Shown piece after piece: positions 26,253 through 39,629 of a stretch of 64,000 nt of DNA. The notes below the pieces were generated by a model that worked only from the letters and a program-made list of their open reading frames with translations, was not told the DNA's origin and ran no database searches. Made by a program: the position numbers and the translations under genes. Positions within the stretch are counted from its first letter, which is position 1. Each line of letters begins with the position of its first letter. Source of the DNA: Gammaproteobacteria bacterium (GTDB lineage Bacteria; Pseudomonadota; Gammaproteobacteria; Steroidobacterales; Foliamicaceae); NCBI GenBank assembly GCA_965115835.1, contig OZ220471.1, positions 1,486,157 to 1,550,156 of the forward strand, in the 5' to 3' direction.

Positions 26253-27818
26253 TCAGCGTCCCTTTCTGGCCATTCTTCTGAGCCATTCCGACTCATCAAT
26301 CGCCACGCGACTCAGCGTTGTTCCAAAAGTCTGGGCGATCCTCTGTGCGTACTCGGCCTTGAGTTCACCCCGCCACTTGTATTGATTTTCACAAGTATCC
26401 GTAAACTCGAAGTCGCCATCGGATTCCCGCTTTGCTGCGATTACGGCACCGCTGCCCGTCGATGGTTTGAATTTGCGGAGAACCCAACCATCTGGATCAC
26501 GTTCGATGCCCAATCGCTCGAATTTGTCATCAATTCTGGCGACAATCTGGTCCATTCCCTTCTTGGGTTCAACCAGCGGCAGGAAAAAGAACATTGTCTC
26601 TCCTTTCAATCTCACGCAATCACATCGAGGTCTCATGCAGATCAAATGCTGTTTGCCGCCAGCCTCGGACACCGTAACGACGGTACCCAGCCACAATGTC
26701 GGTGGCGGCGCACCATACACCGTTCGGAAACTCATGATCCAAGCCAACCGCTTGTCAAGGTCGCCGGCATTCTGACCGGAGAAGCCGGCGGAGAGACCTT
26801 CAAAGTTTTTATTTTTCAATGCACTCGCTGCAAAACCTTGGTTCGCCAACTCAATGGTCTTCTCCAGATCGAGATCCTGACCGCCGAACACGAAACTCTC
26901 GGTTCCTTGCCCCTTGCGTCGTATCCAATTCTCGACAGCCTTGGCGCTTGCGGGAGACGCTTCCGCAACAGCGTTGTCCATCAGGCCTCGAAGCTCTTCG
27001 GCCACATGGTTCACGATCTGCCGTTCCGCATCGTGCGGGTCGGATAGACATGCCCTGTGAGCAAGAAACGCCGGATCCAACTCCGCACTAAACCGGTCCA
27101 GTACCTTGTGCGCGCCTTCTCGCACTGCGGCCAACGAGGTGATTGCGATGCCGGGAAGCAGCCCCGCAGTCATTGAGGCGAAATCATCGACTAGCCGGCC
27201 GGGAAGATCCTCCTCCGCGACACTCCGATCCTTCAGTGATGCCGCCAGATTCACACCGGACTTTGCATAAAGGACAACCCGACCATGCCGGTATGAAATT
27301 TCCATTCCAGTCCCATTCCGCTTTGGCTCAAGTCCGCCATCTTTCAGCGCGTCCAAAACTTTTGCGCCGATATCCTCCAGCCGTGCCTCACCAGTGTAAA
27401 TCGCCACGAGACGGAGGGAATTACGATCTGCTTCTCCAGTCAGCAAATCCCAAATCAACTTCAGCGCGTACTGAGGCTTGCCATCCTTCAAAAGCCAGTC
27501 GAGGATCACGATGTCGGCCTGCCTCATCGTTTCCATTGCTGAATCCGTGGGACCGACCACACCGCAGATGACGCCAAGCGCTGAAAACGCATCCATGACG
27601 GAACCTGCGTTCAGGGTGTGTATCAAACTGCGATCAACTGCTCCCTCATTATCCCGGCTTGATGCCCGCATGCGCCGGCCCGGCGCCACCAACCCCGACT
27701 CTGGTCGATCACCCCCGACCAATCGCATGCGCGCCTCGTCGTCTACCACTACCGCCGTATGGAGAAAACGCTGCGCGAAGGCAACGCTGCCATATCTCGA
27801 TTCGCCCGCCAACGCCAT
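26253..27818 (-). CDS. Receiver (CheY-like) domain protein with an uncharacterised ~330-aa C-terminal domain
   Basis: ATG 27818 preceded by AGGGGAAAG. CheY-like landmarks in order: VVVDDE, ADIVILDW (putative phospho-Asp), LVAIYTGE, VVLYAKSG. I recognise no motif in the C-terminal part (CMRPRCDCVRL...FFFLPLVEP...). Confidence 0.6.
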   Translation of the reverse strand: MALAGESRYGSVAFAQRFLHTAVVVDDEARMRLVGGDRPESGLVAPGRRMRASSRDNEGAVDRSLIHTLNAGSVMDAFSALGVICGVVGPTDSAMETMRQADIVILDWLLKDGKPQYALKLIWDLLTGEADRNSLRLVAIYTGEARLEDIGAKVLDALKDGGLEPKRNGTGMEISYRHGRVVLYAKSGVNLAASLKDRSVAEEDLPGRLVDDFASMTAGLLPGIAITSLAAVREGAHKVLDRFSAELDPAFLAHRACLSDPHDAERQIVNHVAEELRGLMDNAVAEASPASAKAVENWIRRKGQGTESFVFGGQDLDLEKTIELANQGFAASALKNKNFEGLSAGFSGQNAGDLDKRLAWIMSFRTVYGAPPPTLWLGTVVTVSEAGGKQHLICMRPRCDCVRLKGETMFFFLPLVEPKKGMDQIVARIDDKFERLGIERDPDGWVLRKFKPSTGSGAVIAAKRESDGDFEFTDTCENQYKWRGELKAEYAQRIAQTFGTTLSRVAIDESEWLRRMARKGR

Positions 27819-27827
27819 CACTTTCCC

Positions 27828-30785
27828 CTATAGTTCTTTCACTGGCGCCACGCCGAATGTCGCGCCACCGTCGCCTTCGAGCAACTGAAGATCGAAGCCG
27901 ACCCGGCGCAGAGTTTCCCGTCCGATGTACAACCCCATCCCTCGGCCACCGGGCTTTCTGCTGAAGCCGAACTCGAAAATCGCCTCCCGGTCGCGGACAT
28001 CGACCCCCGGTCCGCTATCGGCGACGAGCAATGCGCCGCCGCGCTCATCAAGCTCGATAGTTCGTTCCAACTGGGGGTTCTGTTGCGAAAGCCAAAAGAT
28101 CGCGTTGTCCACCAAATTCACAAAGACGGGATAGAAGCTCGAGGGGAAGCCGATGATCCTGGCGTCGTCGAAGGCTCTTGTCGCCTTGAAGGACACGTCA
28201 TGGCGCGCCAAACGCGCGCGGAACAGCTCCTCCAGAAAGTCCCGAATCTCGGAACCACGGATTTCCACCGCCTTCCTGTAGAGTCGCCGCTGCAACGGCG
28301 TAAACAGCGTCAGATATCCGTCGAGGTGATCGAAGCTTGCTCGAATACTGTTGTACAGTTCGCCCAATCCCTCGTTCACATCGGCCCAGGCTTTCAGTTT
28401 TCGCAAGCCAGTGCGAATCGACCGTATCGTGCCGGAGAATTCATGGTTGATGATCTCGATAGCCATTCCCAACTGTGCCAACTGCGCATCAGCCTCGGCT
28501 TCCTCCTCCAGCAAAAGATTGCGTTGCTCGATCGCCATCAATTGTTCGGCTGTCGAGCTCTCACCTGTCACGTCCACCGCCTGAAGCTGCTCCAACACCG
28601 AGCGTAACAATGCTCCCTGTTTTTCGGCGACTTTCAGTACCCTGGCCTCCAACGCGCTTCTGGTTTCGACGAGACACTCGTCGGTCATTCCCGCCAGATC
28701 GTTCCGTTGAAATTCGCTTAGCACCTCCCGCAGTTCCGACTCGGCAATCTTGAGGGACCGTCCCGCTACCTCTCGCGCTTTCGAGGCGACCTTGTCCGCT
28801 TCCGCCCTCACTGCCCGACCTGATTCGCCCGTCGTCTTTCGCGCCTCGCGCACAAGGCCATCCAGTGCCGCTTCTGCCCTGACGCGACGGTCTAGCGACA
28901 ACCTTGCCTTCCGAACCTCCTCACCAATCATGTCTTCCATAAGCTCGCGAGACGGCCGGAACACATTCTCCTGAAGCAAGGCGAACTCCGCGTTGTAGAC
29001 GCTCCAGTCGCGAAGCGTGGCTTTGCTGAGTCCGATTCGTGGACGCGCTATACGGTAACGCGCCACCAGACTCCTGATATCTGCTTGCGCCTGACGTTCA
29101 AGAACAAGAATTTTTTGCGCCGCCAACTGGCTGTCCGCCATGCTGCATACCGCTTGCAGCTCCTTCTCGACACGTCCCGCCAAAGCCAAGGCTTCATTCT
29201 GAGGTTCGTTGTTCTTGAGCTTATCGAAAAAACAGTCCAAACTCTCCTTGAATATTTTCTTCCTCTCCGCGACCCGTTTTTGTCGTTGTTTCCTGGCCTC
29301 ATCCTCTCTCGAAAGCTCGGCCTTTCGCTGATCGAATTTGTCAGCGTGCATCCCTTTGACCCGGAAAAAGTCCGCTGCCATCTGAAAAAAGAAGTTCTGG
29401 AGAATCGAACGGAACTGACGGTACGCCTTGTTCTGTTGGAATCCCTCTCGTCCTGCTTTTTCCAACAGATCCCCATTATTGTCCGCGTCGATCCACACGG
29501 CCCCAAACATTTTCCTGTGTGAGAAATAGTAGTAGGAAGCGCTCTTTGTTCGCCTGAATTCGATGTCCAGCCAATCGTAGTCGGTGTTGCCATAAGGCAG
29601 TACGCGAACCCCGTTCCGGTATATGTAGAGTCCTCCCAACCGCTCGGTCTTGCGTGCCAATGTCGCATACTCTTCGTCAGGAATCGTCGAGTATTTCTCC
29701 TCGCCCTCGAAAGCGGCGAAGTCGATTGAGAACGGACCACAGCGTGTGGGCACGCCACGCCCGCCGCCCCATGGGATAACGTGATCGGCTGTCGTCTCAC
29801 CATAGATTGAAACCTCTCCCTTGAACTGACCGAATTCGTCGAAGTCACCGCGCACCCGGTGATCCGCATCCCCGAACTCTTCCGGGGTGAAGAACTCATC
29901 CTCGGCAATCAGCTCTTTGGTCAACTCGTCCGTCTTGTGATCGCGAAACGCAGTGTGGATCACAGGCTGCGAGTCTGGTGTCATGGTGTTACTGAATCCA
30001 AGCAACGCTTTCATCAGGGGCGGTGCTTTTTTCAACGCAGCCGCCTTGCTCGCTGCGGGGTCTCCGTCGATATCATCCGCCAGTAACGGCGATGCGGGCT
30101 TGATGATGAAGTGTGTTCCGCTGCTGCTCGCACCAGCGAGTGACGGCTTTTCAAGGTAGGAGTCGATGTCTTGCGGATCAATATCGAATTGATCCAGTTC
30201 TGCCAGAAGCTTCTTCAACAATCGCCTCTCGACATCGCGGCCGACAATTTTGGCGCTCGCACGAAATTCTTCCACCATGTCAGCTACATCCTGTGCCGAA
30301 GGCAAAGAGCCCGCTGTAAATGACCGCAGGGGTATTTCGACGTCTTCCAGGTCGATGCCGGGCCATTCGAATACGCCCCAGTTCAGGAACGCTGCGGTGA
30401 GGTCGGAGGCTCCGTCATCAGCCTTCGGGCGAGTGAGAACCAGAAGCTGCGGGCCGATAGTCGCAATCGCAAGCCTTCCGATCCCCTTCTCTCCCAGCAT
30501 CGGCCGCGGTTCCTTATCTGGATATTGCGGTGGCCGTTGATTCGGATCGAACTTGCTTTCCGTGCCGATCGTCAGCCATCGCGTCACGAAGTCGTCCCGG
30601 CTCATCCCGACGCCATCGTCTCTGAGTACAAACAGGCCATCCGAGCGGTAATAGTCGATCTCGACGCGATCAGCATAGGCGTCGTGCGCATTCTTGAACA
30701 GTTCGCTGATCGCGGTCGGAATGCCGGCAATCTGTTGCCGACCGAGCATGTCTAGTGTGCGAGCGCGCGTCTTGAAGGTTGCCAT
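27828..30785 (-). CDS. Double-GHKL protein: N-terminal MORC/Hsp90-like ATPase + coiled coil + C-terminal histidine-kinase core (DHp + CA)
   Basis: N-terminal Bergerat motifs ISELFKNAHDA, RDDGVGM, GEKGIGRLA. A ~350-aa helical Glu/Arg/Ala-rich middle. H-box-like AIEIINHEFSGTIRSIR, then a second ATPase (FVNLVDNAIFW, VADSGPGV, GGRGMGLYI). The ATG at 30785 shares 1 nt with the dcm stop. Confidence 0.75.
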   Translation of the reverse strand: MATFKTRARTLDMLGRQQIAGIPTAISELFKNAHDAYADRVEIDYYRSDGLFVLRDDGVGMSRDDFVTRWLTIGTESKFDPNQRPPQYPDKEPRPMLGEKGIGRLAIATIGPQLLVLTRPKADDGASDLTAAFLNWGVFEWPGIDLEDVEIPLRSFTAGSLPSAQDVADMVEEFRASAKIVGRDVERRLLKKLLAELDQFDIDPQDIDSYLEKPSLAGASSSGTHFIIKPASPLLADDIDGDPAASKAAALKKAPPLMKALLGFSNTMTPDSQPVIHTAFRDHKTDELTKELIAEDEFFTPEEFGDADHRVRGDFDEFGQFKGEVSIYGETTADHVIPWGGGRGVPTRCGPFSIDFAAFEGEEKYSTIPDEEYATLARKTERLGGLYIYRNGVRVLPYGNTDYDWLDIEFRRTKSASYYYFSHRKMFGAVWIDADNNGDLLEKAGREGFQQNKAYRQFRSILQNFFFQMAADFFRVKGMHADKFDQRKAELSREDEARKQRQKRVAERKKIFKESLDCFFDKLKNNEPQNEALALAGRVEKELQAVCSMADSQLAAQKILVLERQAQADIRSLVARYRIARPRIGLSKATLRDWSVYNAEFALLQENVFRPSRELMEDMIGEEVRKARLSLDRRVRAEAALDGLVREARKTTGESGRAVRAEADKVASKAREVAGRSLKIAESELREVLSEFQRNDLAGMTDECLVETRSALEARVLKVAEKQGALLRSVLEQLQAVDVTGESSTAEQLMAIEQRNLLLEEEAEADAQLAQLGMAIEIINHEFSGTIRSIRTGLRKLKAWADVNEGLGELYNSIRASFDHLDGYLTLFTPLQRRLYRKAVEIRGSEIRDFLEELFRARLARHDVSFKATRAFDDARIIGFPSSFYPVFVNLVDNAIFWLSQQNPQLERTIELDERGGALLVADSGPGVDVRDREAIFEFGFSRKPGGRGMGLYIGRETLRRVGFDLQLLEGDGGATFGVAPVKEL

Positions 30786-31867
30786 CAGGATAGTTTTCCC
30801 ACATCCCTCAGATGTTCGATGAATTGATGACCGATGAGTTTTGCCAAACGAACCGGTACCGCATTCCCGATTTGTCTTGCCATCGACGCCATGCTTCCCT
30901 CAAAAACGAAGTCTTCGGGAAATGTTTGCAAGCAAGCCGCCTCCCGGATACTGATGGCCCTATCCTGCTCCGGATGGCCGAAGCGTCCGTTCGAGTAGCT
31001 CGTGCATCGCGTGGTAAGCCCTGATGCGGGCGCGTCCCACGACATCCGGCCATAGACATCGCTATAGCCCGAAAACCCCTTGTGGCAATCGAGCATCAGG
31101 CGTTGCGGCCAATCCCGATTGCCACCACCTTCAGGCGTTGCCTCTATACGCTCCAGATTGCGCGCGGAAAGATGCGCTGCCCTGTGGTTGGGCACTTCCT
31201 GATGCTCTTCCCCCGCCCGAATCGGCGGAAGATGAGCGATCCAGTCCCCGACCGTGGAGTATTCCTCGTTGGCCGTTCCTGGCCCGTGCGTCTCATCAGG
31301 CAAGCGAACCACACCATGAAGGCTCCCTACCAGGACGAGCCGACGGCGGCTTTGAGGTATCCCGTATTTGGCAAGCAATACAGGTCGGTAGTCCACCTTG
31401 TAACCCGCTTCGTCCAGTCGCCGCAGGAAGTCGCCGAAAGGCTGGCTGTCTGCGGACAACTGCTGTAGTCCCGGGACATTCTCCACAAACACAAGATCGG
31501 GCCGACAACCTTCTACCAAACGAGCAAAATGGACAAGCAGAGGGACACGATCATCCTGGCTGGGCTCCGGCCGTGTCGTATTCTGTTTGGTGAAGGGCTG
31601 ACACGGCGCACAGCCGCTGAAAAGCACCGGATTTGATCGCTCGGTGTCTACCCGGGATCGGACCATCTCGACATTCACCTTGCGGATATCCGCAAACTCG
31701 AAATGCGCGTCGGGGAAGTTGGCCTCGAAGCTTGCCCGAGCGCCCATATCGTAGTCCAGCGCGAACATGATCTTCATCCCGGCGGCCCGGAAACCGCAAC
31801 TCGCGCCGCCACATCCGGCAAAGAAGTCGTATACCTCCACAGTCGCCAAGTCGCTACGGTGGGTCAT
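30785..31867 (-). CDS. dcm: DNA (cytosine-5)-methyltransferase
   Basis: Motif I DFFAGCGGAS, motif IV GCAPCQPF, motif VI FVENVPG, QSRRRL, C-terminal GNAVPV. The ATG at 31867 overlaps the vsr stop (ATGA). Confidence 0.9.
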   Translation of the reverse strand: MTHRSDLATVEVYDFFAGCGGASCGFRAAGMKIMFALDYDMGARASFEANFPDAHFEFADIRKVNVEMVRSRVDTERSNPVLFSGCAPCQPFTKQNTTRPEPSQDDRVPLLVHFARLVEGCRPDLVFVENVPGLQQLSADSQPFGDFLRRLDEAGYKVDYRPVLLAKYGIPQSRRRLVLVGSLHGVVRLPDETHGPGTANEEYSTVGDWIAHLPPIRAGEEHQEVPNHRAAHLSARNLERIEATPEGGGNRDWPQRLMLDCHKGFSGYSDVYGRMSWDAPASGLTTRCTSYSNGRFGHPEQDRAISIREAACLQTFPEDFVFEGSMASMARQIGNAVPVRLAKLIGHQFIEHLRDVGKLS

Positions 31868-32442
31868 GTTTGCGCACCGGTATGAGGCATGAAGGCACAT
31901 CCGGTCCGTGACCCCGCGTCCGACCTTTCCGGCACCGACAGGGAACGTCCCTGCGAGTCGGATACCGACATCGAGACTTGGTTTTTGGCGGTTGTGGCCA
32001 ACGGGATGTTCTTCGGCTCATCAGTAGCCCTTCTGCGGGTGACCGATGCGGCCAGCTTGTGCGCCACAAGCGTCTGGTCCTTGGTTTCGCACTGCCAGAT
32101 GACGAGGGTCCGCCAGCCATGTGCCCTCAGGGCCGCTTCCTGGCGGGCGTCCCGGGCGACATTGGCAGCGAACTTCTCCGTCCAGAAGGCGATTCGGGAC
32201 TTGGGGGTGGATGCGTACCGGCAGCCTTCATGCCGATGCCAGAAGCAACCGTGCACGAACACAGCCAGCCGATGTTGCGGGAACACCAGATCCGGTCTAC
32301 CCGGAAGATCGGTGCGATGCAGGCGGAAACGCAGGCCCATCCTGTGGGCTATTCGACGAACCGCCAGTTCAGGTGTGGTATTGCGGCTGCGTATGCCCGC
32401 CATCAGTTCGCTTCGCCGCCTGCTGTCCACGATGTCGGTCAT
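31864..32442 (-). CDS. vsr: Very short patch repair endonuclease
   Basis: RRSELMAGIRSRNTTPEL, LPGRPDLVFPQHRLAVFVHGCFWHRHEGC, FWTEKF, VIWQCE. About 40 extra C-terminal residues. The ATG at 32442 overlaps the hsdS stop (ATGA). Confidence 0.9.
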   Translation of the reverse strand: MTDIVDSRRRSELMAGIRSRNTTPELAVRRIAHRMGLRFRLHRTDLPGRPDLVFPQHRLAVFVHGCFWHRHEGCRYASTPKSRIAFWTEKFAANVARDARQEAALRAHGWRTLVIWQCETKDQTLVAHKLAASVTRRRATDEPKNIPLATTAKNQVSMSVSDSQGRSLSVPERSDAGSRTGCAFMPHTGAQT

Positions 32443-33584
32443 GCCGTGTCCTCCAGGAGGCGGAACATGAGGGAGGCATTCAGCGTTGCAGCAATACGAC
32501 AGGCAAGCTCCATACGCTTGACTGTGGCTTGCGCTGCCTTGGCAAGTGCTGCGAATCGAGCCTGTTCATCAGGTGGAGGATGCGGCACTGGCAATAACAT
32601 CAGCGCTTTCATGTCGGTTCGCGGCATTCGGGAACCGGTCACAGACGCCATGACATGTTCAACAGTTTCCTTTTGCCGAAGCAATTGCGCGACGAAGTCG
32701 CGATTGATTCCCTCTCGGGGGAGAAGTGGAATCAACTCGGTAGAGCATCTGCCAGCGAATTCGGGAGTAGCGACTTTGTTCAGATAGGGCCGAAGCTTCG
32801 CATAGAGAACATGACGCTTGTCGAATCGAAATGTTGCGCTTCTTTGATTGCCTGTGCGTGAATCGTTATCGAGGTTGATCGCACCTGTGTGCGGCTCGAC
32901 ATTTTCGACGCCCACAAACGGAAGTCGCGATAAAGCCGGGTTGTTCGGATCCAGTCCTTGACGATCCACCACGCAAATTTCGCGGAGTGCACAAACTGGC
33001 CACCCCATCGGGTTTGCGGCAGGATCGCCGAACATCTTCACAAACAGCGCGGGCATGAATTCCCGCATCAACTCCCGCGCCTGCGCCCGCAGCCGTTCGA
33101 TCTTCGCCGCTCGGTTCAGGATGCCGGCAATCCGCCGCTGCTCGTCGAGCGAAGGAAGGGGGACCGGCAGCAACATCAGCGCTTTCATGTCGGTTCGCGG
33201 CATTCGAGAACCGGTCACAGACGCCATGACATACTCAACGGTCTGTTTTCGCCGAAGCAGATGGGCAACGAACTCGCGATCCACACCATCCCGAGGAAGA
33301 AGTGGAACCAGTTCGGTCGAGCACTTGCCCGCAAAATCAGGGGTTACGACCTTGTTCAGATACGGTCGGAGCTTTGAATAGAGAATATGGCGCTTGTCAA
33401 ACTGGAAAGTTGTGCTCCTTTGACTCCCGACACGTGAGCCGTTGACGAAATTAAGGGCACCGTTTTGGGACTCGACATTCTCGACGCCCACGTAGCGAAG
33501 CCCCGCCGCGGCAGAGTCGTCCGGATCAAGACCTTGGCGATCCATCTCACAGAGATCACCCAGCTTTACGACCGGGAAGCTCAT
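32439..33584 (-). CDS. hsdS: Type I restriction-modification specificity subunit with two near-duplicate target-recognition domains
   Basis: Two repeats of the pattern VGVENVE...FDKRH.LY.KLRPYLNKV.TP.FAG.CSTEL.PLLPR...MASVTGSRMPRTDMKALMLLPVP, separated by the conserved helical spacer LDEQRRIAGIL. Confidence 0.9.
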   Translation of the reverse strand: MSFPVVKLGDLCEMDRQGLDPDDSAAAGLRYVGVENVESQNGALNFVNGSRVGSQRSTTFQFDKRHILYSKLRPYLNKVVTPDFAGKCSTELVPLLPRDGVDREFVAHLLRRKQTVEYVMASVTGSRMPRTDMKALMLLPVPLPSLDEQRRIAGILNRAAKIERLRAQARELMREFMPALFVKMFGDPAANPMGWPVCALREICVVDRQGLDPNNPALSRLPFVGVENVEPHTGAINLDNDSRTGNQRSATFRFDKRHVLYAKLRPYLNKVATPEFAGRCSTELIPLLPREGINRDFVAQLLRQKETVEHVMASVTGSRMPRTDMKALMLLPVPHPPPDEQARFAALAKAAQATVKRMELACRIAATLNASLMFRLLEDTA

Positions 33585-33771
33585 TCCCCCACCGCCTCCA
33601 TTACGGCCTCGGCGAGGTCGTCGATCTCGGCGAGGATTTGCGTCTCGATGCCTCGCAGGTCCTTGAGGATGTCCAGCGGTTCGCGGCGCTCTACCTTCGC
33701 GCGGCTCAATGGCCGGTGGCGGTTGGCGCTGAGGTTGAAGTCGGCGGCGCGGATGGCGTCGGCCCCGGCGA
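33581..33771 (-). pseudogene. Orphan 3' fragment of hsdM (last ~63 codons), still ATGA-coupled to hsdS
   Basis: Encodes ADAIRAADFNLSANRHRPLSRAKVERREPLDILKDLRGIETQILAEIDDLAEAV..., nearly identical to the C-terminus of the full hsdM at 35752-37416. The DNA repeat 33603-33771 vs 35807-35975 has 5 mismatches in 169 bp by my alignment. Confidence 0.8.
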
Positions 33772-33852
33772 CCTCATCAAGCAGCAGAAATCGTTCATGC
33801 ACGGCCACTCTGTCTTGGCGCCTGTCCCTTCGGGCGCTTATGACAGGCATCC

Positions 33853-34386
33853 TCACGCCGCTGTCGCCGCCGCATGTTCCCAAAGGCCGAGATCGCGCAG
33901 CAGGGCAACCGCTTTTTCGATGCGCTCGTCCGTCGCCTTGAGCGGCTTGCGCGCCTTCGTTTCCTCGACCGGGTCGATCTCTCCCTTGCCGTAGTAATCC
34001 CACTCATCACGCAGGAAAACCATGGTTGCAGCCAACTCCAGAACGATATCCGACGCCCCCTTCAGCTTGTCCAGAAAAGCACTGGCCTGGCAAGCCGAAA
34101 GCGCGCCAAGAGGTGGCGGCGGCTCCTCTTTCGACTTGAAAATTGCATAGGGCACTCCGTGGCGTCCTGGTTTTTCTTCCATGGTGATTCGTTTTTCCGC
34201 CAGCGCATCGGTTAATCCGTCAACCAGATCGAAGCAATACGGCCCATAGTGGTGATAGATGAATCGCAGGCCGAAATTTGCGCCACAGCGGTCCAAGAGA
34301 TAGGCCTGCTTCTGCAGCCGGGTTCGACCGATCAGTTCGCCGCCGTTCAGCGCGACCAAGCCAGTTACGATTTCTTCCACATTCAT
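33853..34386 (-). CDS. Panacea/DUF4065 (SocA-like antitoxin domain)-like protein, 177 aa
   Basis: GRTRLQKQAYLLD...FIYHHYGPYCFDLVDGL resembles the KLQKLLY...YGP core of DUF4065 as I remember it. The ATG at 34386 overlaps the HD gene stop (ATGA). Family assignment is tentative. Confidence 0.45.
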   Translation of the reverse strand: MNVEEIVTGLVALNGGELIGRTRLQKQAYLLDRCGANFGLRFIYHHYGPYCFDLVDGLTDALAEKRITMEEKPGRHGVPYAIFKSKEEPPPPLGALSACQASAFLDKLKGASDIVLELAATMVFLRDEWDYYGKGEIDPVEETKARKPLKATDERIEKAVALLRDLGLWEHAAATAA

Positions 34387-35738
34387 GTTGCCACCTCCTT
34401 CAGGATTTTTTGCAGCTCCTTGGTGCGAGCCGCATCGGGCGCGTAGACGCGCTGGATGCGTTTGCCATGCCGAAGCGTTTGCACGACATCGGATTCACCA
34501 ACGATATCGGTTGGCTCGCCTGCATCGTCTCGCGTCTTCACCAGAACTTTTTTCAGAGCCGATGTGTCGTCGAAGTTATAGGCCTTGTATGACGCAAACG
34601 GCGCGTCGTCGAAAATAACCTCGTCCTTCCATCCCCAAGGCTTCTCATTCAGACACCGCCTGAACCGGAGGAACAGATTGCCATTCCACTCATCACAGAC
34701 TCCGATATCGACGCACTTGTAGAGTACGCGATCCCGCAACCGTCTCGCCAATCCCGAAATCCGCTTGTCCGAAAAATCGGAATAAATCGACAAGGCGGCC
34801 CAGACCGACGCATCGTCGAGAGCAAGATAGGAACCGAGCGTTGGCGTGTCGGATTTCAGATAGCACAGAACCGGTTCTCGGCTCGCCACTTCCCTCCCTA
34901 CTGTATCCGACGCAATGACACCCATGAGGGTCTCCAGCATCTTTTCGGCGGCCCTTGTAGTCTTGTGCATATAAACCATCCGGTAAAGACGCGACCGGGC
35001 TTCCAGATACTCCTCGGCTACCTGAAAGCCCTTTGGACCGAGATAGAAGCATGGCGCCTTGATCGGATCCGTATTTCCGATGGTTACCTTCCCGACCTCA
35101 AGGCAATCAAGCAACCAGTCAAGATCGATATGTCCGAACTGCACACCGGTCATCAGTCGGTCCCGCTGCATGTAGTCGAGCCGGTCGGCGTCAAACTGGC
35201 TCGACACGATAGCGCTGTAAATGTCCTTCTGGCTGTCTTCGGTTAGAAGTGCGCCGATCTGGTTTGGCAAGTCCTCGTCCGCCTCTCGGAGCACTTGGTT
35301 GACTCTGGTGTCGCTCCTTACGATCTCGGTACTCCATTCTTCGTGTCGTCGCTGCTGCCGACCCATAATCGTGGCGGACTCAAACACATGACTGAAGGGT
35401 CCGTGCCCGATATCGTGCAGTAGGGCCGCCAAAAGCGCGACACGCTCGCGTTCCGGATCGTGAGCATGACCCAACCGCCGTGCGATGACGTCAGCCAACC
35501 GCCGCGCCATGTGATACACGCCAACGCTGTGGGCAAACCGGCTATGGGTCGCACCGGGAAAAACGAGATCGGAGAAGCCCAACTGACGGATGCGGCGCAG
35601 TCGCTGAAACTCGGGCGCATTCATCAGGCTCCAGGCGATCCGGTCTGTTTTGTTCCGATGAACGTTGGCACTGCCCCCGAACACAATCAGTCCATGAATC
35701 GGGTCGCGTATCCGCTGCGTTTGTTTGCTGTTCCCCAT
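34383..35738 (-). CDS. SAMHD1-like HD-domain dNTP triphosphohydrolase
   Basis: IRDPIHGLI, EFQRLRRIRQLG, THSRFAHSVGVYH, ALLHDIGHGPFSH, FDADRLDYMQRD, YMHKT. ATG 35738, 13 nt after the hsdM stop. Confidence 0.8.
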   Translation of the reverse strand: MGNSKQTQRIRDPIHGLIVFGGSANVHRNKTDRIAWSLMNAPEFQRLRRIRQLGFSDLVFPGATHSRFAHSVGVYHMARRLADVIARRLGHAHDPERERVALLAALLHDIGHGPFSHVFESATIMGRQQRRHEEWSTEIVRSDTRVNQVLREADEDLPNQIGALLTEDSQKDIYSAIVSSQFDADRLDYMQRDRLMTGVQFGHIDLDWLLDCLEVGKVTIGNTDPIKAPCFYLGPKGFQVAEEYLEARSRLYRMVYMHKTTRAAEKMLETLMGVIASDTVGREVASREPVLCYLKSDTPTLGSYLALDDASVWAALSIYSDFSDKRISGLARRLRDRVLYKCVDIGVCDEWNGNLFLRFRRCLNEKPWGWKDEVIFDDAPFASYKAYNFDDTSALKKVLVKTRDDAGEPTDIVGESDVVQTLRHGKRIQRVYAPDAARTKELQKILKEVAT

Positions 35739-35751
35739 CACCCCAGCCCGT

Positions 35752-37416
35752 TCAGCAGTCCGAAATGCGAGGAGCCAAGGCCGGACTGGATGAAGTCTCT
35801 TCCCGCACGGCCTCGGCGAGGGCGTCGATCTCGCCGAGGATTTGCGTCTCGATGCCTCGCAGGTCCTTGAGGATGTCCAGCGGTTCGCGGTGCTCTACCT
35901 TCGCGCGGCTCAATGGCCGGTGGCGGTTGGCGCTCAGGTTGAAGTCGGCGGCGCGGATGGCGTCGGCCTCGGCGAACCACCAGTTCGCGGTCCAGTTCTC
36001 GTTTGGATCGCGGCCTTGCCATTCCGCCCACCGTGCGTCGCGGTCACGGAACGCCTCGATCAGGCCAGGCAGGTCGTCTTCGTCAATGGGCGTGTCGTGG
36101 TTGGCGTCAAGCTTGTAGCCGTCGTTCTCGGCATGCAGGAACATCACCCGCTCCGTCGCCCCGCCCTTGCGGAACGCCAGCACCGAGGTCTTGACACCGG
36201 AATAGGGATTGAACACGCCGCCCGGCAGCGACAGCACCGCCTCCACCCGGTTGTTCTCGATCAAACGGCGGCGCAGTTCCTTGTGCGCCCCGGTGGAGCC
36301 GAACAACACGCCTTCCGGCGCCACCACGCCGCAGCGCCCGTCTTCCCGAAGGTGGTTCAGCATGTATTGCAGGAACAAAAGTTCGGTTTGCGCCGTGCGC
36401 CCAACCTTCACTTCCTCTACGATGCGGTCGCGGTCCAACCGCCCGGAGAACGGCGGATTGGCAAGAATCACGTCGAACCCGTCCGGCGGCAGGTCGAGCT
36501 CCGCCTTCGCCGCGCGGTCGAGCGAGCGGGTGAGCGCGTCGCGGCGCAGGATGCGCACCTTGTCCAGCCCGCGCAGCGTCAGGTTCATGGTGGCGAGGCG
36601 AACCATCTGCGGATCCACATCGGCGCCGTGAAAAGTCCCCTCCTGCAACTGCCGAACCGCATCACGCCCCAGCGTGTCGCCGAGGCCGCGCCGCACGGCC
36701 TTGCCGTCGGCCTCCACTTCCTCGATCCCGGCGGACGAGGAGTTCGCCAGACGGATATGGTCCCATGCGCCCACCAGGAAGCCCGCCGTGCCGGCCGCCG
36801 GGTCGTAAATCGTCTCGCCGATCCGCGGATCGACCAACCGCACCAAGGCGCGGATCACGTGGCGCGGCGTACGAAACTGGCCGAGTTCGCCCGCCTGACG
36901 AATCTGCCGCAGCACATGCTCGAACAGGTCGCCCTTGGTGTCGGCGTCTACCCGATCGAGACGCAGGTCGTTCAACTGACTGACGACCTGGGTGAGCACC
37001 GTCGGCTCGTCGATCACCAGCCGGGCGCCGTCCATGAAGTCGGTGACGCCGTTCGTCGCAAGCTCGGCATGGAACGCAAAGACCTCTTCGCGCACCCAAG
37101 CGACCAGACGCTCGCCGTTCAGCGCCTGCGCCCAGGACGACCAGCGCAAGAGTTCGCGCGGCACACTCTTCGCATCGGACGCATGGGCGTTGCGCGGGTC
37201 GCGCAGCGCCCATTGGCCCTCGTAGGCGCTGGCGTACGGAACGGCGCCAGGCTTTTGCGCCGCCCGTGCCCGGGCCGCGTCCGCCGCTTCGTGCATGTAG
37301 AAGTAGATCAGGAAACTCAACTGCTCGGCGTTCTGGGCCGGGTTCGGGTAGCCGCCTCCAAACAGATAATCGCGGATGCGGTCGATGCCGCGACGGAGCT
37401 CCGGGGTCATGGGCAT
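35752..37416 (-). CDS. hsdM: Type I restriction-modification DNA methyltransferase subunit (N6-adenine)
   Basis: GQFRTPRHV, motif I IYDPAAGTAGF, motif IV ILANPPF, LFLQYML. ATG 37416 with GGAAGGA upstream, 4 nt after the hsdR stop. Confidence 0.9.
   Translation of the reverse strand: MPMTPELRRGIDRIRDYLFGGGYPNPAQNAEQLSFLIYFYMHEAADAARARAAQKPGAVPYASAYEGQWALRDPRNAHASDAKSVPRELLRWSSWAQALNGERLVAWVREEVFAFHAELATNGVTDFMDGARLVIDEPTVLTQVVSQLNDLRLDRVDADTKGDLFEHVLRQIRQAGELGQFRTPRHVIRALVRLVDPRIGETIYDPAAGTAGFLVGAWDHIRLANSSSAGIEEVEADGKAVRRGLGDTLGRDAVRQLQEGTFHGADVDPQMVRLATMNLTLRGLDKVRILRRDALTRSLDRAAKAELDLPPDGFDVILANPPFSGRLDRDRIVEEVKVGRTAQTELLFLQYMLNHLREDGRCGVVAPEGVLFGSTGAHKELRRRLIENNRVEAVLSLPGGVFNPYSGVKTSVLAFRKGGATERVMFLHAENDGYKLDANHDTPIDEDDLPGLIEAFRDRDARWAEWQGRDPNENWTANWWFAEADAIRAADFNLSANRHRPLSRAKVEHREPLDILKDLRGIETQILGEIDALAEAVREETSSSPALAPRISDC
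35807..35975. repeat. 169-bp direct repeat (copy 2) of the hsdM 3' end; copy 1 is 33603-33771
   Basis: Aligned by eye base by base: 164 of 169 identical. The two copies bracket the HD/Panacea-like cassette. Confidence 0.85.
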
Positions 37417-37420
37417 GCGC

Positions 37421-39568
37421 TCATCCTTCCCCGGCGCGAGTGCCTTCGTCCGCGCCACTGCCAGCCCGCCGGGAGCCGAACACCGCAGCGTTGATTCCAG
37501 CAATCAGCTTGCCCAGCGATTCCTCGCCGCCGAACACGCGCCGCGCCTGATCGTAGCCCCCGAGCGTGGAGAACGGGTGTTCATCAAGGGTCCATGCGCC
37601 GATGCCGTCCATGCTCGGCGCGTCAGCCCGCACCCGGTTACCGATCAGCCCGGCCCAGCGCGCCTGTTCCGCGTTGAAATCGCCGTGCTCTTCCCGCCAC
37701 GACTCGAAACGCACACCGACCTCTGCCGCACGCGCCTCGTGCTCTGGCGTACGAACGATGCGGCCATTCTCGTCGAGCGTCAGCCACTCGCGGCTCGCCG
37801 GGTCGATATGGTCGTCCACATCCAGCGTCAGAAGCCCGCGGGGCTTGGCCGAGCCGGGGCGACGGTCGGTGTCGTGGACCGGACGGCCAGCAATATCCTC
37901 CTCTTCGTCTCCGTGAAAGTCCGTCACGCCCACAAAATCGAAGATCGTGAACCCGGTCTTGCCGATATGGTCCGCCTTGCGCGTACCGCGCCCGCGCATC
38001 TGCCGGTAGAGGATCGCGCTTTGCGTGAACCGCGCCATGACGAGGCTCACGACCTCCGGGCAGTCGAACCCGGTGTCCAGCATGTTCACGCTAACGAGAA
38101 TCTTCGGGTAGTCCTCTTCCTTGAAGCGCTTGATGATGGCGCTCGCATCGGGCGCCGGACCGCCGCCGACATCGCTCACCACGAAGTCTGCATAGCGCGT
38201 CGTTGGATGCGGCTTCCGATCCGCGTAGTGCGCGTCGAACATCTCCGCCAGAGTCTCGGCATGGCGCCGGGTCACCGCAAATACGAGGGTCTTGCCTGAC
38301 TTCGGCCAGCGGCGGACGCCGTCTCGGCCCATGAAACCCTTCTCGTGCGCATCGCGGAACTCACGCACCAGGGCGCGGTTGCGCTCCGGGATGGTGAACT
38401 TGCGCTCCAGCCCCTGCGGGTCCACCGTAATCGGGTCCGAATCGGCGAACAGCGCCTCGAACCCTTCACGCGTCTCCCGATCCATCGCGCTCCAGTCGAG
38501 TTCGTCGCGGCGAACCTCGAACCCGTCTTCGGCGGCGGTCTTCACCGTCATCGCCTTGTAGATGCGGTAGGGCACGAGATAGCCTTCCTCGATGGCCCGG
38601 GGCAGCGTGTAGCGGAAGGTGGGTTCGTCGAGCCCGAAGAAGCGCAGCGTATCGCGCACAAACCGCCCCTCTTCCGTTTTGGGAGATGTGCCAGCCTCTG
38701 CCGTGCAAGGCGTTGCCGTAAGGCCGAGCTGGATGGAATCGAAGTGCCGCAACACGCCGCTGTACTGGCCGTAGATCGAGCGGTGGCACTCGTCCGTAAT
38801 GACCAGATCGAAATAACCCGGCGAGAGGGTGCGGAACTCGGCGATCATGGTCTGGAGGGTCGCAATCGTGATGCGCTTGGCCCGGTCGAACTGCCGGCCG
38901 GGCCGCAGCACATGGCAGGGATAGTCCCGCAGATGGTCGGTGAAGGCGTCCTCGGCCTGCCGCGCCAGGGCGATCCGGTCGACCAGAAACAGCACGCGGG
39001 TGACAATCCCCGCCTCGAACAGCCGCTTGATGAAGGCTGCCGCCGTGCGGGTCTTGCCGGTTCCCGTCGCCATCTCGACCAGGAGCTTGCGCCGCCCGAG
39101 CGAGATCTCGGCGGACAGCGCCTCGACGCATTCGATCTGATAGTCGCGGTCGACGATCCTGGAGTCGATGGTGACCGCCGACAGATCGCGGCAACTCCGG
39201 CGCGCGGCGATGCGCCGCTCCAGGTCGTCCTGAGCGTAGAAGCCCGCGATCTTCCGCGCGTGGGAGTCGGTCTTGCGGTCGAGGAACCGCACTTCCTCGC
39301 CGTTCGAAAGAAACATGAACGGCACACCGAGTTGTTCGGCGTAGTGCTTGCCCTGATCCTGCGCCGCGATGGGATCGGCGCCCGCGCGCTTGGCTTCCAG
39401 CGCCGCCATGGGCCGGCCCTGCCGGTTGCAGAGCACATAGTCGGCCTGCGTCCCGTCGGGCAGCGCGTACTCGAACAGGACGCTCGAACCGTCGGTGAGG
39501 TCCCAGCCTGCATCCTTGAGCAGCGCATCAATCTTCACTCGCGCGAAGGCTTCCGTCGTGCCACTCAT
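37421..39568 (-). CDS. hsdR: Type I restriction enzyme R subunit (EcoEI-like, short form)
   Basis: N-terminal nuclease core (ADYVL...ALEAKR), helicase motifs MATGTGKT, DECH (ITDECHRS), LGLTATP, QMRGRGTR. The C-terminal region is EcoEI_R_C-like. Confidence 0.9.
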   Translation of the reverse strand: MSGTTEAFARVKIDALLKDAGWDLTDGSSVLFEYALPDGTQADYVLCNRQGRPMAALEAKRAGADPIAAQDQGKHYAEQLGVPFMFLSNGEEVRFLDRKTDSHARKIAGFYAQDDLERRIAARRSCRDLSAVTIDSRIVDRDYQIECVEALSAEISLGRRKLLVEMATGTGKTRTAAAFIKRLFEAGIVTRVLFLVDRIALARQAEDAFTDHLRDYPCHVLRPGRQFDRAKRITIATLQTMIAEFRTLSPGYFDLVITDECHRSIYGQYSGVLRHFDSIQLGLTATPCTAEAGTSPKTEEGRFVRDTLRFFGLDEPTFRYTLPRAIEEGYLVPYRIYKAMTVKTAAEDGFEVRRDELDWSAMDRETREGFEALFADSDPITVDPQGLERKFTIPERNRALVREFRDAHEKGFMGRDGVRRWPKSGKTLVFAVTRRHAETLAEMFDAHYADRKPHPTTRYADFVVSDVGGGPAPDASAIIKRFKEEDYPKILVSVNMLDTGFDCPEVVSLVMARFTQSAILYRQMRGRGTRKADHIGKTGFTIFDFVGVTDFHGDEEEDIAGRPVHDTDRRPGSAKPRGLLTLDVDDHIDPASREWLTLDENGRIVRTPEHEARAAEVGVRFESWREEHGDFNAEQARWAGLIGNRVRADAPSMDGIGAWTLDEHPFSTLGGYDQARRVFGGEESLGKLIAGINAAVFGSRRAGSGADEGTRAGEG

Positions 39569-39629
39569 GCCGCCATCCAGTTTCGAGGAACGGCCGGGGC
39601 AAAGCGGCGACGAAAGCAGGCCCTGCCGC

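Follow-up and report, generated by a model that had tools for sequence, protein, structure and literature searches.

A two-gene cassette between hsdM and hsdS, bracketed by a duplicated hsdM 3' end, in a gammaproteobacterial type I restriction operon

The entry of a cassette into a tightly coupled operon, without the operon being disabled in the process, is an event that is rarely visible. A 64,000-nt stretch of gammaproteobacterial DNA (contig OZ220471.1; 'the window' below means this whole stretch) appears to hold such a case. Between hsdM and hsdS, the methyltransferase and specificity genes of a type I restriction operon, lie two genes: one encodes an HD-domain homologue of deoxynucleoside triphosphate (dNTP) triphosphohydrolases and the other a 177-aa partner protein, and the pair is bracketed by a 169-nt duplication of the hsdM 3' end. 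We consider it very probable that the pair is an embedded cassette and that its flanking repeats arose by recombination on the hsdM end. The fuller account, which we favour on balance, is of a module that entered by recombination at this site, with a spare hsdM tail relaying translation into hsdS and with a cargo that depletes dNTPs during phage infection.

The two repeat copies stand in direct orientation at a spacing of 2204 nt and are identical at 164 of 169 positions (97%), as found by repeat search and base-by-base comparison. Their five mismatches fall at 33618, 33630, 33687, 33731 and 33765, and identity drops to background right outside both repeat ends. A chance origin is excluded, because the other direct repeats in the surrounding 10 kb are far shorter or far weaker: D1, within hsdS, is longer (300 nt) at only 78% identity, and the rest are at most 35 nt long at 71-86%. 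An earlier reading of this DNA, made from the sequence alone (hereafter the sequence-only reading), had given the same repeat limits and the same count of identities, and both proved exact. Gene calls likewise bore out its view that copy 1 is an orphan hsdM tail ending in an ATGA overlap with hsdS at 33581-33584, that copy 2 lies inside a full-length hsdM, and that the roughly 2.0 kb between the repeats carries two ATGA-coupled genes, the insert measuring 2.03 kb and comprising the HD and 177-aa genes.

Relatives were sampled with the window HsdM, taking one genome per species, which yielded 80 loci at 74-91% protein identity; six more from metagenomes, found like the others by HsdM-based scans, bring the set to 86. 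Locus contents were called by tblastn of window proteins against the 80 genome loci, and related loci of all kinds are numbered L001-L106, with W for the window locus. Compared by BLASTN with L001, the closest uninterrupted locus, W falls into two blocks, 35799-39574 matching L001 7846-11618 (87.5%) and 33000-33771 matching L001 11442-12213 (85.6%). The blocks are collinear, and in L001 they share 177 nt. The comparisons with L007 and L009 have the same outcome, and this is the pattern that an insertion with a target duplication of about 170 nt would be expected to leave. Compared instead with L085, a cassette carrier, W is collinear from hsdR through the 177-aa gene. The cassette has a guanine-plus-cytosine (GC) content of 54-56%, against 64-70% in hsdR and hsdM.

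The empty site is the norm, hsdM directly overlapping hsdS in about 71 of the 86 related loci. Among the 80 genome loci, hsdS starts in an ATGA overlap with hsdM in about 65, five carry the HD and 177-aa pair, five another small cassette and one a third cargo, and four have no hsdS match; all six metagenome loci are uninterrupted. Most relatives match HsdM residues 1-538 only, their matches ending at 538-539, which is the point where the window hsdM leaves the repeat. The uninterrupted allele that the sequence-only reading had proposed to look for is thus the common one, and a cassette without duplication in all lineages, which would have spoken for an ancestral arrangement, was not found among the related loci. 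Its central proposal, a cassette gained by recombination at the conserved hsdM end, is supported by these empty alleles and by the other cargos described below, with the caveat that repeated loss between the repeats fits too. The insert holds only the two genes: gene calls and Pfam searches found no recombinase, transposase, integrase or insertion sequence (IS) in or beside the cassette, and the repeat search found no inverted repeat at its ends. A transposon, IS or integron cassette was accordingly rejected, there being no transposase or integrase, no terminal inverted repeats, and a duplication of 169-177 nt where a few bases would be typical.

The same junction has been used repeatedly. At least nine other loci have an HD cassette here, and orphan hsdM tails are present in several of them. 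L032, L041, L050, L058, L063, L085, L086 and L091 carry the pair between hsdM and hsdS, and L087 and L090 carry it beside decayed hsdM fragments. In L085 a 61-aa orphan open reading frame (ORF) overlaps the hsdS start. A second cargo consists of a 72-aa GIY-YIG-like gene followed by a gene for a 73-aa single-pass membrane protein. This pair is present in L002, L006, L011 (11651-12128), L022, L080 and L099-L106, and the GIY-like gene occurs in L041 and L086 as well; it lay between hsdM and hsdS in eight of the eight places looked up, and the GIY-like family, with 67 members, was at the hsdM/hsdS junction of this type I family in every place examined. Its label is tentative. The Pfam GIY-YIG match is weak (E 0.042, below threshold), the motif spacing is Y, 10 aa, HTG, then R, H and E, and the AlphaFold2 (AF2) model, of low confidence with a predicted local distance difference test (pLDDT) score of 59, has the order beta-beta-alpha-beta-alpha. 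Orphan hsdM tails of about 130-165 nt accompany the GIY-like cassette in L011, L022 and L080, and in L099 and L100 only a 27-nt remnant is left, with the hsdS ribosome-binding context and stop/start overlap, these five being the loci inspected for such tails. A third cargo, in L073 (11484-13010), is an ORF of about 270-300 aa that matches no Pfam family and is inserted a short way into the 5' end of hsdS; here the junction of hsdM end and hsdS start is duplicated on both sides of the cargo. By tblastn the window contains neither the GIY-like nor the membrane gene.

Two loci carry nested insertions in opposite orders. L041 reads hsdM, HD, partner, tail remnant, GIY-like gene, hsdS, and L086 reads hsdM, GIY-like gene, truncated membrane gene, HD, partner, tail remnant, hsdS, so at least two separate insertion events must have occurred. 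The alternative cargos that the sequence-only reading had proposed to look for at this junction exist: the GIY-like and membrane pair and the third cargo of L073. Its broader idea, of the hsdM 3' end as an anchor for swapping defence cargo, is supported as regards the swapping, two other cargos having been found, while the word 'defence' is drawn from homology and context. The pair can also outlast its host genes, being intact where the restriction genes have decayed: L032 has stops in hsdM, L058 an hsdM-HD fusion, L091 a split hsdM, and L087 and L090 only hsdM fragments. Among the loci sampled through hsdM, a disrupted hsdM was seen in two of five cassette-bearing loci and in three of about 75 others, small numbers with partly biased sampling. 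In L079, where an HD fragment lies 3' of hsdS, no hsdM tail travels with it. In L002 (12443-14873) an IS-type transposase gene, in one full and one partial copy, stands between the GIY-like cassette and hsdS, with a fragment of a different hsdS alongside.

At the left junction, alignments show two states. The canonical hsdM stop (GAATGA or GAATAA) is kept in L032, L041 and L050, where the cassette starts 1-8 nt further on with a conserved leader, YCCGGYCTTGACC...; in W, L085 and L090 this stop is lost, and the hsdM frame continues across the leader and terminates 13-18 nt short of the HD ATG. The sequence-only reading had described a different 18-codon hsdM tail with the HD gene following 13 nt later. 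The distance stands; the tail is not an imported HsdM end and results from read-through of the conserved cassette leader after loss of the stop, which gives the window HsdM a C-terminal extension of 17 aa beyond the point at which it holds repeat copy 2. The leader, about 55 nt long, is conserved between the window (35739-35800) and L032, L041, L050, L087 and L090 and includes a TTGACC element that reads TTGGCT in the window. This element could serve as a -35 box and so give the cassette, and hsdS, a promoter of their own.

At the right junction, the orphan tail in W comprises about 169 nt of clean homology and the last 22 nt of the gene. Elsewhere its length varies, from about 200-250 nt in L032 and 130-150 nt in L085 to about 70-80 nt in L041 and L086 and the last few bases only in L050, and so does its identity to the locus's own hsdM tail, which is 69-85% (79% over 198 nt in L032) against 97% in the window. 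The hsdM-derived orphan frame is open to the hsdS start in W, in L085 (where it was called as the 61-aa gene), in L032, L011 and L022. None of the six alignments of an orphan to its own tail (W, L085, L032, L011, L022, L080) contains an indel, and the joint probability of such stop-free frames under simulated neutral substitution is about 0.005-0.03. Even the shortest remnants still hold the last 25 nt or so, and the orphan copy in W retains the native ribosome-binding context of hsdS together with its ATGA stop/start overlap. Such open frames are suggestive of selection for coupling hsdS translation to an upstream gene. In the window the frame extends upstream to a start 2 nt past the partner gene, and translation would then be handed on from hsdM to HD, partner, orphan ORF and finally hsdS; whether the orphan tail acts as this relay we judge to be evenly poised. 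For the 65-80 nt that separate the 177-aa gene from the orphan tail, decayed hsdM and a conserved cassette 3' end were both considered, and Smith-Waterman comparison with shuffled sequences was not significant either way. The spacer at 33772-33852 gave no indication of an RNA element, its fold z-score of -1.05 not being significant, and the locus had no Rfam match.

Features of the type I operon and its embedded cassette in the window
Feature	Position	Strand	Basis or remark
hsdS, specificity subunit, 381 aa, two target-recognition halves	32439-33584	minus	Pfam Methylase_S; PADLOC Specificity_I 8.9e-71, two matched stretches
Orphan 'relay' ORF (putative), 89 codons	33581-33850	minus	ATG 2 nt past 177-aa gene stop (TGAGGATG); TGA overlaps hsdS ATG
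Repeat copy 1, orphan hsdM tail	33603-33771	minus	PADLOC MTase_I profile positions 436-489 of 491
Spacer, 177-aa gene to orphan tail, 81 nt	33772-33852	minus	No significant similarity to hsdM or to other loci's spacers
Inserted cassette without counterpart in uninterrupted relatives, 2,027 nt	33772-35798	minus	BLASTN against L001, L007, L009
177-aa partner gene	33853-34386	minus	Start overlaps HD stop (ATGA)
HD-domain dNTP triphosphohydrolase homologue, 451 aa from ATG (452 aa from GTG 35741)	34383-35738	minus	Pfam HD 3.1e-14, HD_assoc_2
Left junction and cassette leader	35739-35806	minus	Degenerate hsdM end with canonical stop lost, conserved leader (CCGGCCTTGGC..., TTGACC in relatives), hsdM stop 13 nt before HD ATG
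hsdM, type I methyltransferase, 554 aa from ATG 37416	35752-37416	minus	Pfam N6_Mtase 2e-53; PADLOC MTase_I 4.4e-124
Repeat copy 2, hsdM residues ~482-537	35807-35975	minus	Inside full-length hsdM
hsdR, type I restriction subunit, 715 aa	37421-39568	minus	Pfam ResIII 5.6e-36, Helicase_C, HSDR_N, EcoEI_R_C; PADLOC REase_I 1.5e-74

The operon around the cassette is, by its gene content, intact: all three of hsdR, hsdM and hsdS are full length, and restriction and methylation are predicted. HsdR has both the N-terminal nuclease region (HSDR_N) and the superfamily 2 helicase/translocase motor, HsdM has the NPPF motif (ILANPPFSG in translation), and the internal repeat D1 of hsdS (32562-32861 against 33138-33437) is the usual half-duplication of a specificity subunit. 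The genes are closely packed, hsdM starting 4 nt past the hsdR stop and HD 13 nt past the hsdM stop. Consensus scans found one promoter-like site upstream of hsdR, and terminator-like sites were fewer than in shuffled sequences with none at a gene boundary, so a single transcript through hsdS is plausible. On the 3' side of the operon (26253-32442) lies a block of vsr, dcm, a gene for a 985-aa protein and one for a 522-aa Response_reg_2 protein. The 985-aa protein combines HATPase_c_3, HEF_HK and HATPase_c, its N-terminus resembling the restriction enzymes BbrUII and HgiDII, and the block has the look of a conflict module of two-component style, linked to a C5 methylase. Whole or for the most part, it accompanies the type I operon in at least 11 loci of different phyla (L001, L007, L008, L011, L014, L016, L019, L023, L028, L044, L059), with vsr or the last gene undetected in several.

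The type I family itself is widespread. The 80 HsdM-scan loci span Binatia, Alpha- and Gammaproteobacteria, Latescibacterota, Acidobacteriota, Gemmatimonadota (Longimicrobiales), Spirochaetia, Dehalococcoidia, Rhodothermales and others; the record names of many indicate sponge symbionts, and all relatives are metagenome-assembled genomes (MAGs). Scans of viral contigs for relatives of hsdM and HD found none. MAGs of at least ten phyla have the family in common, at 74-91% HsdM protein identity and about 80-90% DNA identity, a degree of similarity that implies extensive recent transfer across phyla. Three MAGs hold two loci of the family each, L001 and L009 (OZ219754.1), L012 and L080 (OZ241878.1), and L016 and L044 (CBDCOS01), so exchange inside one cell or genome is possible. 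In one of these MAGs the GIY-like cassette is in one locus and not in the other.

The first cassette gene encodes, by sequence, a dNTPase homologue of the SAMHD1/EF1143 type, with hydrolysis of dNTPs to nucleoside and triphosphate as its predicted activity. Over about 300 residues (query residues 33-339) it matches Enterococcus faecalis EF1143 (PDB 2o6i) at 5e-44; further PDB matches are 2q14 (2.3e-38), 2hek and SAMHD1 (about 1e-19, N-terminal core only). The metal site H..HD..D is intact, HSRFAHS, LLHDIGHGPFSH and DADRLDY aligning with the 2o6i motifs. The likeness to dNTPases of the SAMHD1, EF1143 and TT1383 type therefore lies in the HD metal site and the homology to EF1143, with the window enzyme's activity and substrates as predictions; unlike these and unlike the bacterial anti-phage dGTPase, HD proteins of the window type are always paired with a partner gene of 170-180 aa, and the window protein falls short of the NCBIfam and PADLOC models of the anti-phage dGTPase. 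Depletion of dNTPs is an established anti-phage and antiviral mechanism, in the hands of bacterial dGTPase, dCTP deaminase and SAMHD1.

The partner belongs to no Pfam family and matches no macrodomain, although it has 1,312 homologues, one of which is named 'YwgA' by a source. PADLOC DarG matches it at 5.2e-8, over positions 177-326 of 329 only, that is the C-terminal part, and NCBIfam DarG does so more weakly. Its AF2 model is confident (pLDDT 91.9), and the best Foldseek match of that model is 7yk3_B, the DarG chain of the Mycobacterium tuberculosis DarTG complex (E 2.4e-4, probability 1.0, template modelling score 0.58), followed with far weaker scores by PadR-like winged-helix proteins. 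A profile of the 177-aa family searched against PDB sequences found DarG (7yk3) at E 0.6, which is not significant, so it is the PADLOC and NCBIfam profiles, together with the fold, that connect the partner with DarG. The modelled protein is thus predicted to have the fold of the DarT-binding C-terminal domain of DarG. The parallel with DarTG, a toxin-antitoxin and anti-phage system, extends from this match, in structure and in the C-terminal part of the profiles, to the arrangement of the genes, the enzyme coming first and its binding partner second in overlapping genes (by 4 nt in the window), and darT and darG have that same order. It ends there: the window partner lacks the N-terminal macrodomain, an ADP-ribosyl glycohydrolase, and its upstream neighbour is an HD hydrolase, with no DarT ADP-ribosyltransferase adjacent. 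By this analogy the partner may bind and restrain the HD enzyme. An exact-protein look-up of the window 177-aa protein returned no contig, and literature searches on 'YwgA' and on DarG with HD found nothing relevant.

In most of the places examined the HD gene adjoins and overlaps the partner gene; the exceptions are L058, L079 and L089, where one or both are truncated or fused. In L089 (5956-7563) a deletion has joined HD and partner into one 520-aa ORF inside an ATP-binding cassette (ABC) transporter operon, with no restriction genes nearby. In three loci (L081, L082, L092) the pair stands alone among metabolic genes, outside any restriction context. From homology, gene order and context, the cargo can be proposed as a second-line anti-phage module acting through dNTP depletion, its partner binding and controlling the HD enzyme, and we offer this role tentatively, at somewhat less than even confidence.

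How the module would have come to lie where it does can be put simply. It would consist of the leader of about 55 nt, the HD dNTPase and the translationally coupled partner. Homologous recombination on the final 170-200 nt or so of hsdM would have brought it in and could probably take it out again. The most economical event would be a single-crossover, Campbell-type integration of a circle containing an hsdM tail and the cassette at the recipient's hsdM end. The left copy would then continue into cassette-linked sequence and complete hsdM, and the right copy would begin at the closure point of the circle and lead on into the hsdM end and hsdS of the recipient itself. An unequal exchange, with two loci of the type I family as partners, would have the same outcome. 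Were the two copies to recombine in turn, the cassette would be excised precisely, restoring both the circle and the empty hsdM-hsdS site; given that deletion of this kind is precise, loss must be common if the repeats are active.

The trees fit a mixed history. In the hsdM tree the HD-bearing loci are scattered, W nesting among cassette-free L001, L005 and L007 and GIY-bearing L006 and L011, with L085 as sister to the clade. The window HsdM is closest to that of cassette-free L001 (90.5%) and 80-86% identical to those of cassette-bearing loci, and its HD protein is closest to those of L086, L085 and L087 (71-73%) and farthest from that of L032 (66%). L032 nonetheless has the cassette-bearing HsdM closest to the window's (86%), and L086 shows the reverse. 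Some co-inheritance and some independent movement or loss both appear to be indicated.

Several observations weigh against this account, either in its mechanism or in its cargo. Among seven HD-bearing loci, W, L085 and L086 are grouped by the restriction-gene tree and by the cassette tree alike, which co-inheritance fits equally well. Sliding-window identity shows no switch of the window hsdM 3' end towards cassette-bearing alleles, the gene being L001-like to its very end, so that a donor hsdM arm has left no trace. Protein identity to the nearest sampled cassette is only 72-79%, which would leave the insert with no known donor, and a circular or excised form is not observable from one assembly. 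One fixed translocatable unit would not explain the variable 5' limits of the orphan tails, and these therefore point to several founding events, possibly illegitimate joins, or to erosion of the tails. Statistical support for the relay ORF is modest. As for the cargo, it sits among housekeeping genes in some genomes and is above threshold in no curated defence model: the PADLOC dGTPase match is only 9e-7 and partial (residues 28-123), and NCBIfam antiphage_dGTPase reaches 16.7 bits against a cut-off of 400.

Other histories of the insert have to be set beside recombination on the hsdM end. Cassette and repeats might be ancestral and have been lost repeatedly through recombination between the repeats, the window being a retained state and not a gain. 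Direct repeats make precise deletion easy, the grouping of W, L085 and L086 has support of 74% in the hsdR+hsdM tree and 100% in the cassette tree, L085 is sister to the window clade in the hsdM tree, and the derived read-through junction is common to W, L085 and L090. However, uninterrupted loci occur in every part of the hsdM tree, deep branches included, so many independent losses would be needed; furthermore, the cassette lies some 10 GC points under hsdR and hsdM, the pair is free-standing elsewhere, at least two insertions are needed for it to stand before the GIY-like gene in L041 and after that gene in L086, and closeness by HsdM and by HD is discordant in L032 and L086, all of which makes an ancestral cassette improbable. 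A more serious contender, though still unlikely in our view, concerns age: the scar could be old and its 97% identity the work of gene conversion, or of a later hsdS swap with the orphan tail as left homology arm, and the repeat would then say nothing about the date of arrival. The much lower identity of orphan tails elsewhere favours an old scar, as does the stretch of about 35 nt of the full copy nearest the cassette (35772-35806), which resembles L085 and departs from the orphan, whereas the 169 nt beside it match the orphan at 97%. Where the two copies differ, at five sites, the orphan mostly carries the L001/L007 alleles, as the hsdS 5' end does, and a conversion tract ending at the limits of homology would give sharp boundaries. 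Yet the five mismatches are evenly spread with no patchwork, the copies are closer to each other than to any sampled allele (at most 90%), and just 5' of the orphan there is no residual hsdM similarity (964 of 1000 shuffles score equal or higher), so that no older, longer tail is detectable. A nuclease might instead have made the site a hotspot, the GIY-YIG-like protein acting as a homing-type endonuclease that cuts the hsdM end, with repair duplicating it and the HD cassette exploiting the broken site. It is known from organelles and phages that a free-standing endonuclease gene can carry a replacement gene 3' end; the GIY-like gene is at the same junction in at least 13 loci, is confined to this type I family and adjoins the HD cassette in L041 and L086, and its motif spacing, weak Pfam match and predicted order of secondary structure fit a GIY-YIG fold. 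With neither the GIY-like nor the membrane gene in the window, a Pfam match below threshold, a model of low confidence and a protein of only about 72 aa without a DNA-binding domain, we give this scenario little credence. Mis-joining in the assembly of a MAG is less probable by far: the source is evidently an uncultured genome and all relatives are MAGs, but the copies are not identical (five sites differ), no reading frame or gene overlap is broken, and the same architecture recurs in independent assemblies from other samples and phyla (L032, L085).

A last alternative leaves the scar as it is and doubts the cargo, taking the genes for a housekeeping dNTPase pair of the YwfO/YwgA kind whose arrival in the operon was accidental and which plays no part in defence or restriction. 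The free-standing pairs between ordinary metabolic genes, the lack of a curated defence match above threshold and the nature of the closest solved relative, EF1143, which is a cellular dNTPase, all fit such an origin. Against it, the clade nearest the window (at least 65% identity) is consistently tied to the type I family, with the pair between hsdM and hsdS in eight loci and beside hsdM remnants in L087 and L090; the pair stays intact where restriction genes decay; the window locus sits in a defence island with vsr-dcm and the two-component-like module; and dNTP depletion is an established means of stopping phages. A purely domestic role thus seems rather doubtful, and an embedded module brought in by recombination on the hsdM end, with a candidate anti-phage cargo, remains the account that we prefer.

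Separate modules embedded in type I loci have precedents. PrrC is embedded in the EcoprrI locus (PMC12707154), TgvAB in a type I locus of VPI-2 in Vibrio cholerae (PMC11411939), and the survey by Payne et al. (2024) counts embedded cassettes by the thousand across type I, BREX and DISARM loci (10.1101/2024.01.29.577857). Embedding is thus common, and it is used to lead the way to new defence genes. As with PrrC and TgvAB, the window pair is a separate module inside a complete hsd operon and is probably co-transcribed with it. Unlike PrrC it has no ABC-type ATPase or anticodon-nuclease domain, Pfam, NCBIfam and PADLOC giving HD-family and DarG-C-terminal matches only, and unlike TgvAB it is not GmrSD-like, being an HD dNTPase homologue with a DarG-C-terminal-like protein. 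In the texts consulted, none of these cases is described with a duplicated hsdM 3' end around the cargo, and in the library searched there was no account of such a duplication as an insertion scar, nor of the HD and 177-aa pair as cargo. Embedded defence cassettes are a known theme; what this case adds to it is the series of hsdM-end scars, the idea of the relay ORF and the dNTPase/DarG-like pair.

For the joining event itself, Campbell-type integration, IS26-style translocatable units and homology-facilitated illegitimate recombination offer analogies. With the first, the window has in common an insert flanked by direct repeats of the recombined sequence, the possibility of precise excision and an empty site in relatives. 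It differs in that the cassette has no recombinase, transposase or IS, and in that the exchange would take place within coding sequence, at the 3' end of a host gene, by the general machinery of the host. At atp6 of Allomyces, a free-standing homing-endonuclease gene at the gene's 3' end reportedly brings a replacement end and leaves the original as a downstream pseudo-copy. There as here a gene 3' end is duplicated around an inserted ORF with the host gene functional, and relatives of the window have a GIY-YIG-like gene at the same junction; the window cassette differs in having no endonuclease gene, and in that its upstream copy is used for hsdM while its downstream copy would serve hsdS expression.

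A bolder version of the preferred account, which we hold to be rather unlikely as a whole, would make the cassette a translocatable unit without a transposase: host recombination between the two copies of about 170 nt would loop out a circle of hsdM tail, leader, HD and partner, able to re-enter any hsdM of the family. The cargo would be a new anti-phage pair resembling a toxin and its antitoxin, with a dNTP-depleting HD enzyme under the restraint of a DarG-C-terminal-like protein. Were this true, defence cargo would hop between restriction operons, and between phyla, with hsdM and hsdS never broken, since the orphan tail would also serve to pass translation on to hsdS.

The locus and its roughly 100 relatives form a natural series, in which there are empty sites, two or three cargos, nested insertions, scars both fresh and eroded, and hosts that have decayed around a surviving cargo. 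Taken together the series points to a rule, in which recombination on the conserved hsdM end duplicates that end and the spare copy keeps hsdS expressed. It also brings forward a widespread and uncharacterised gene pair, the partner alone having more than 1,300 homologues, as a candidate for immunity by nucleotide depletion, at a time when genes embedded in restriction-modification, BREX and similar operons serve the discovery of new immune systems.

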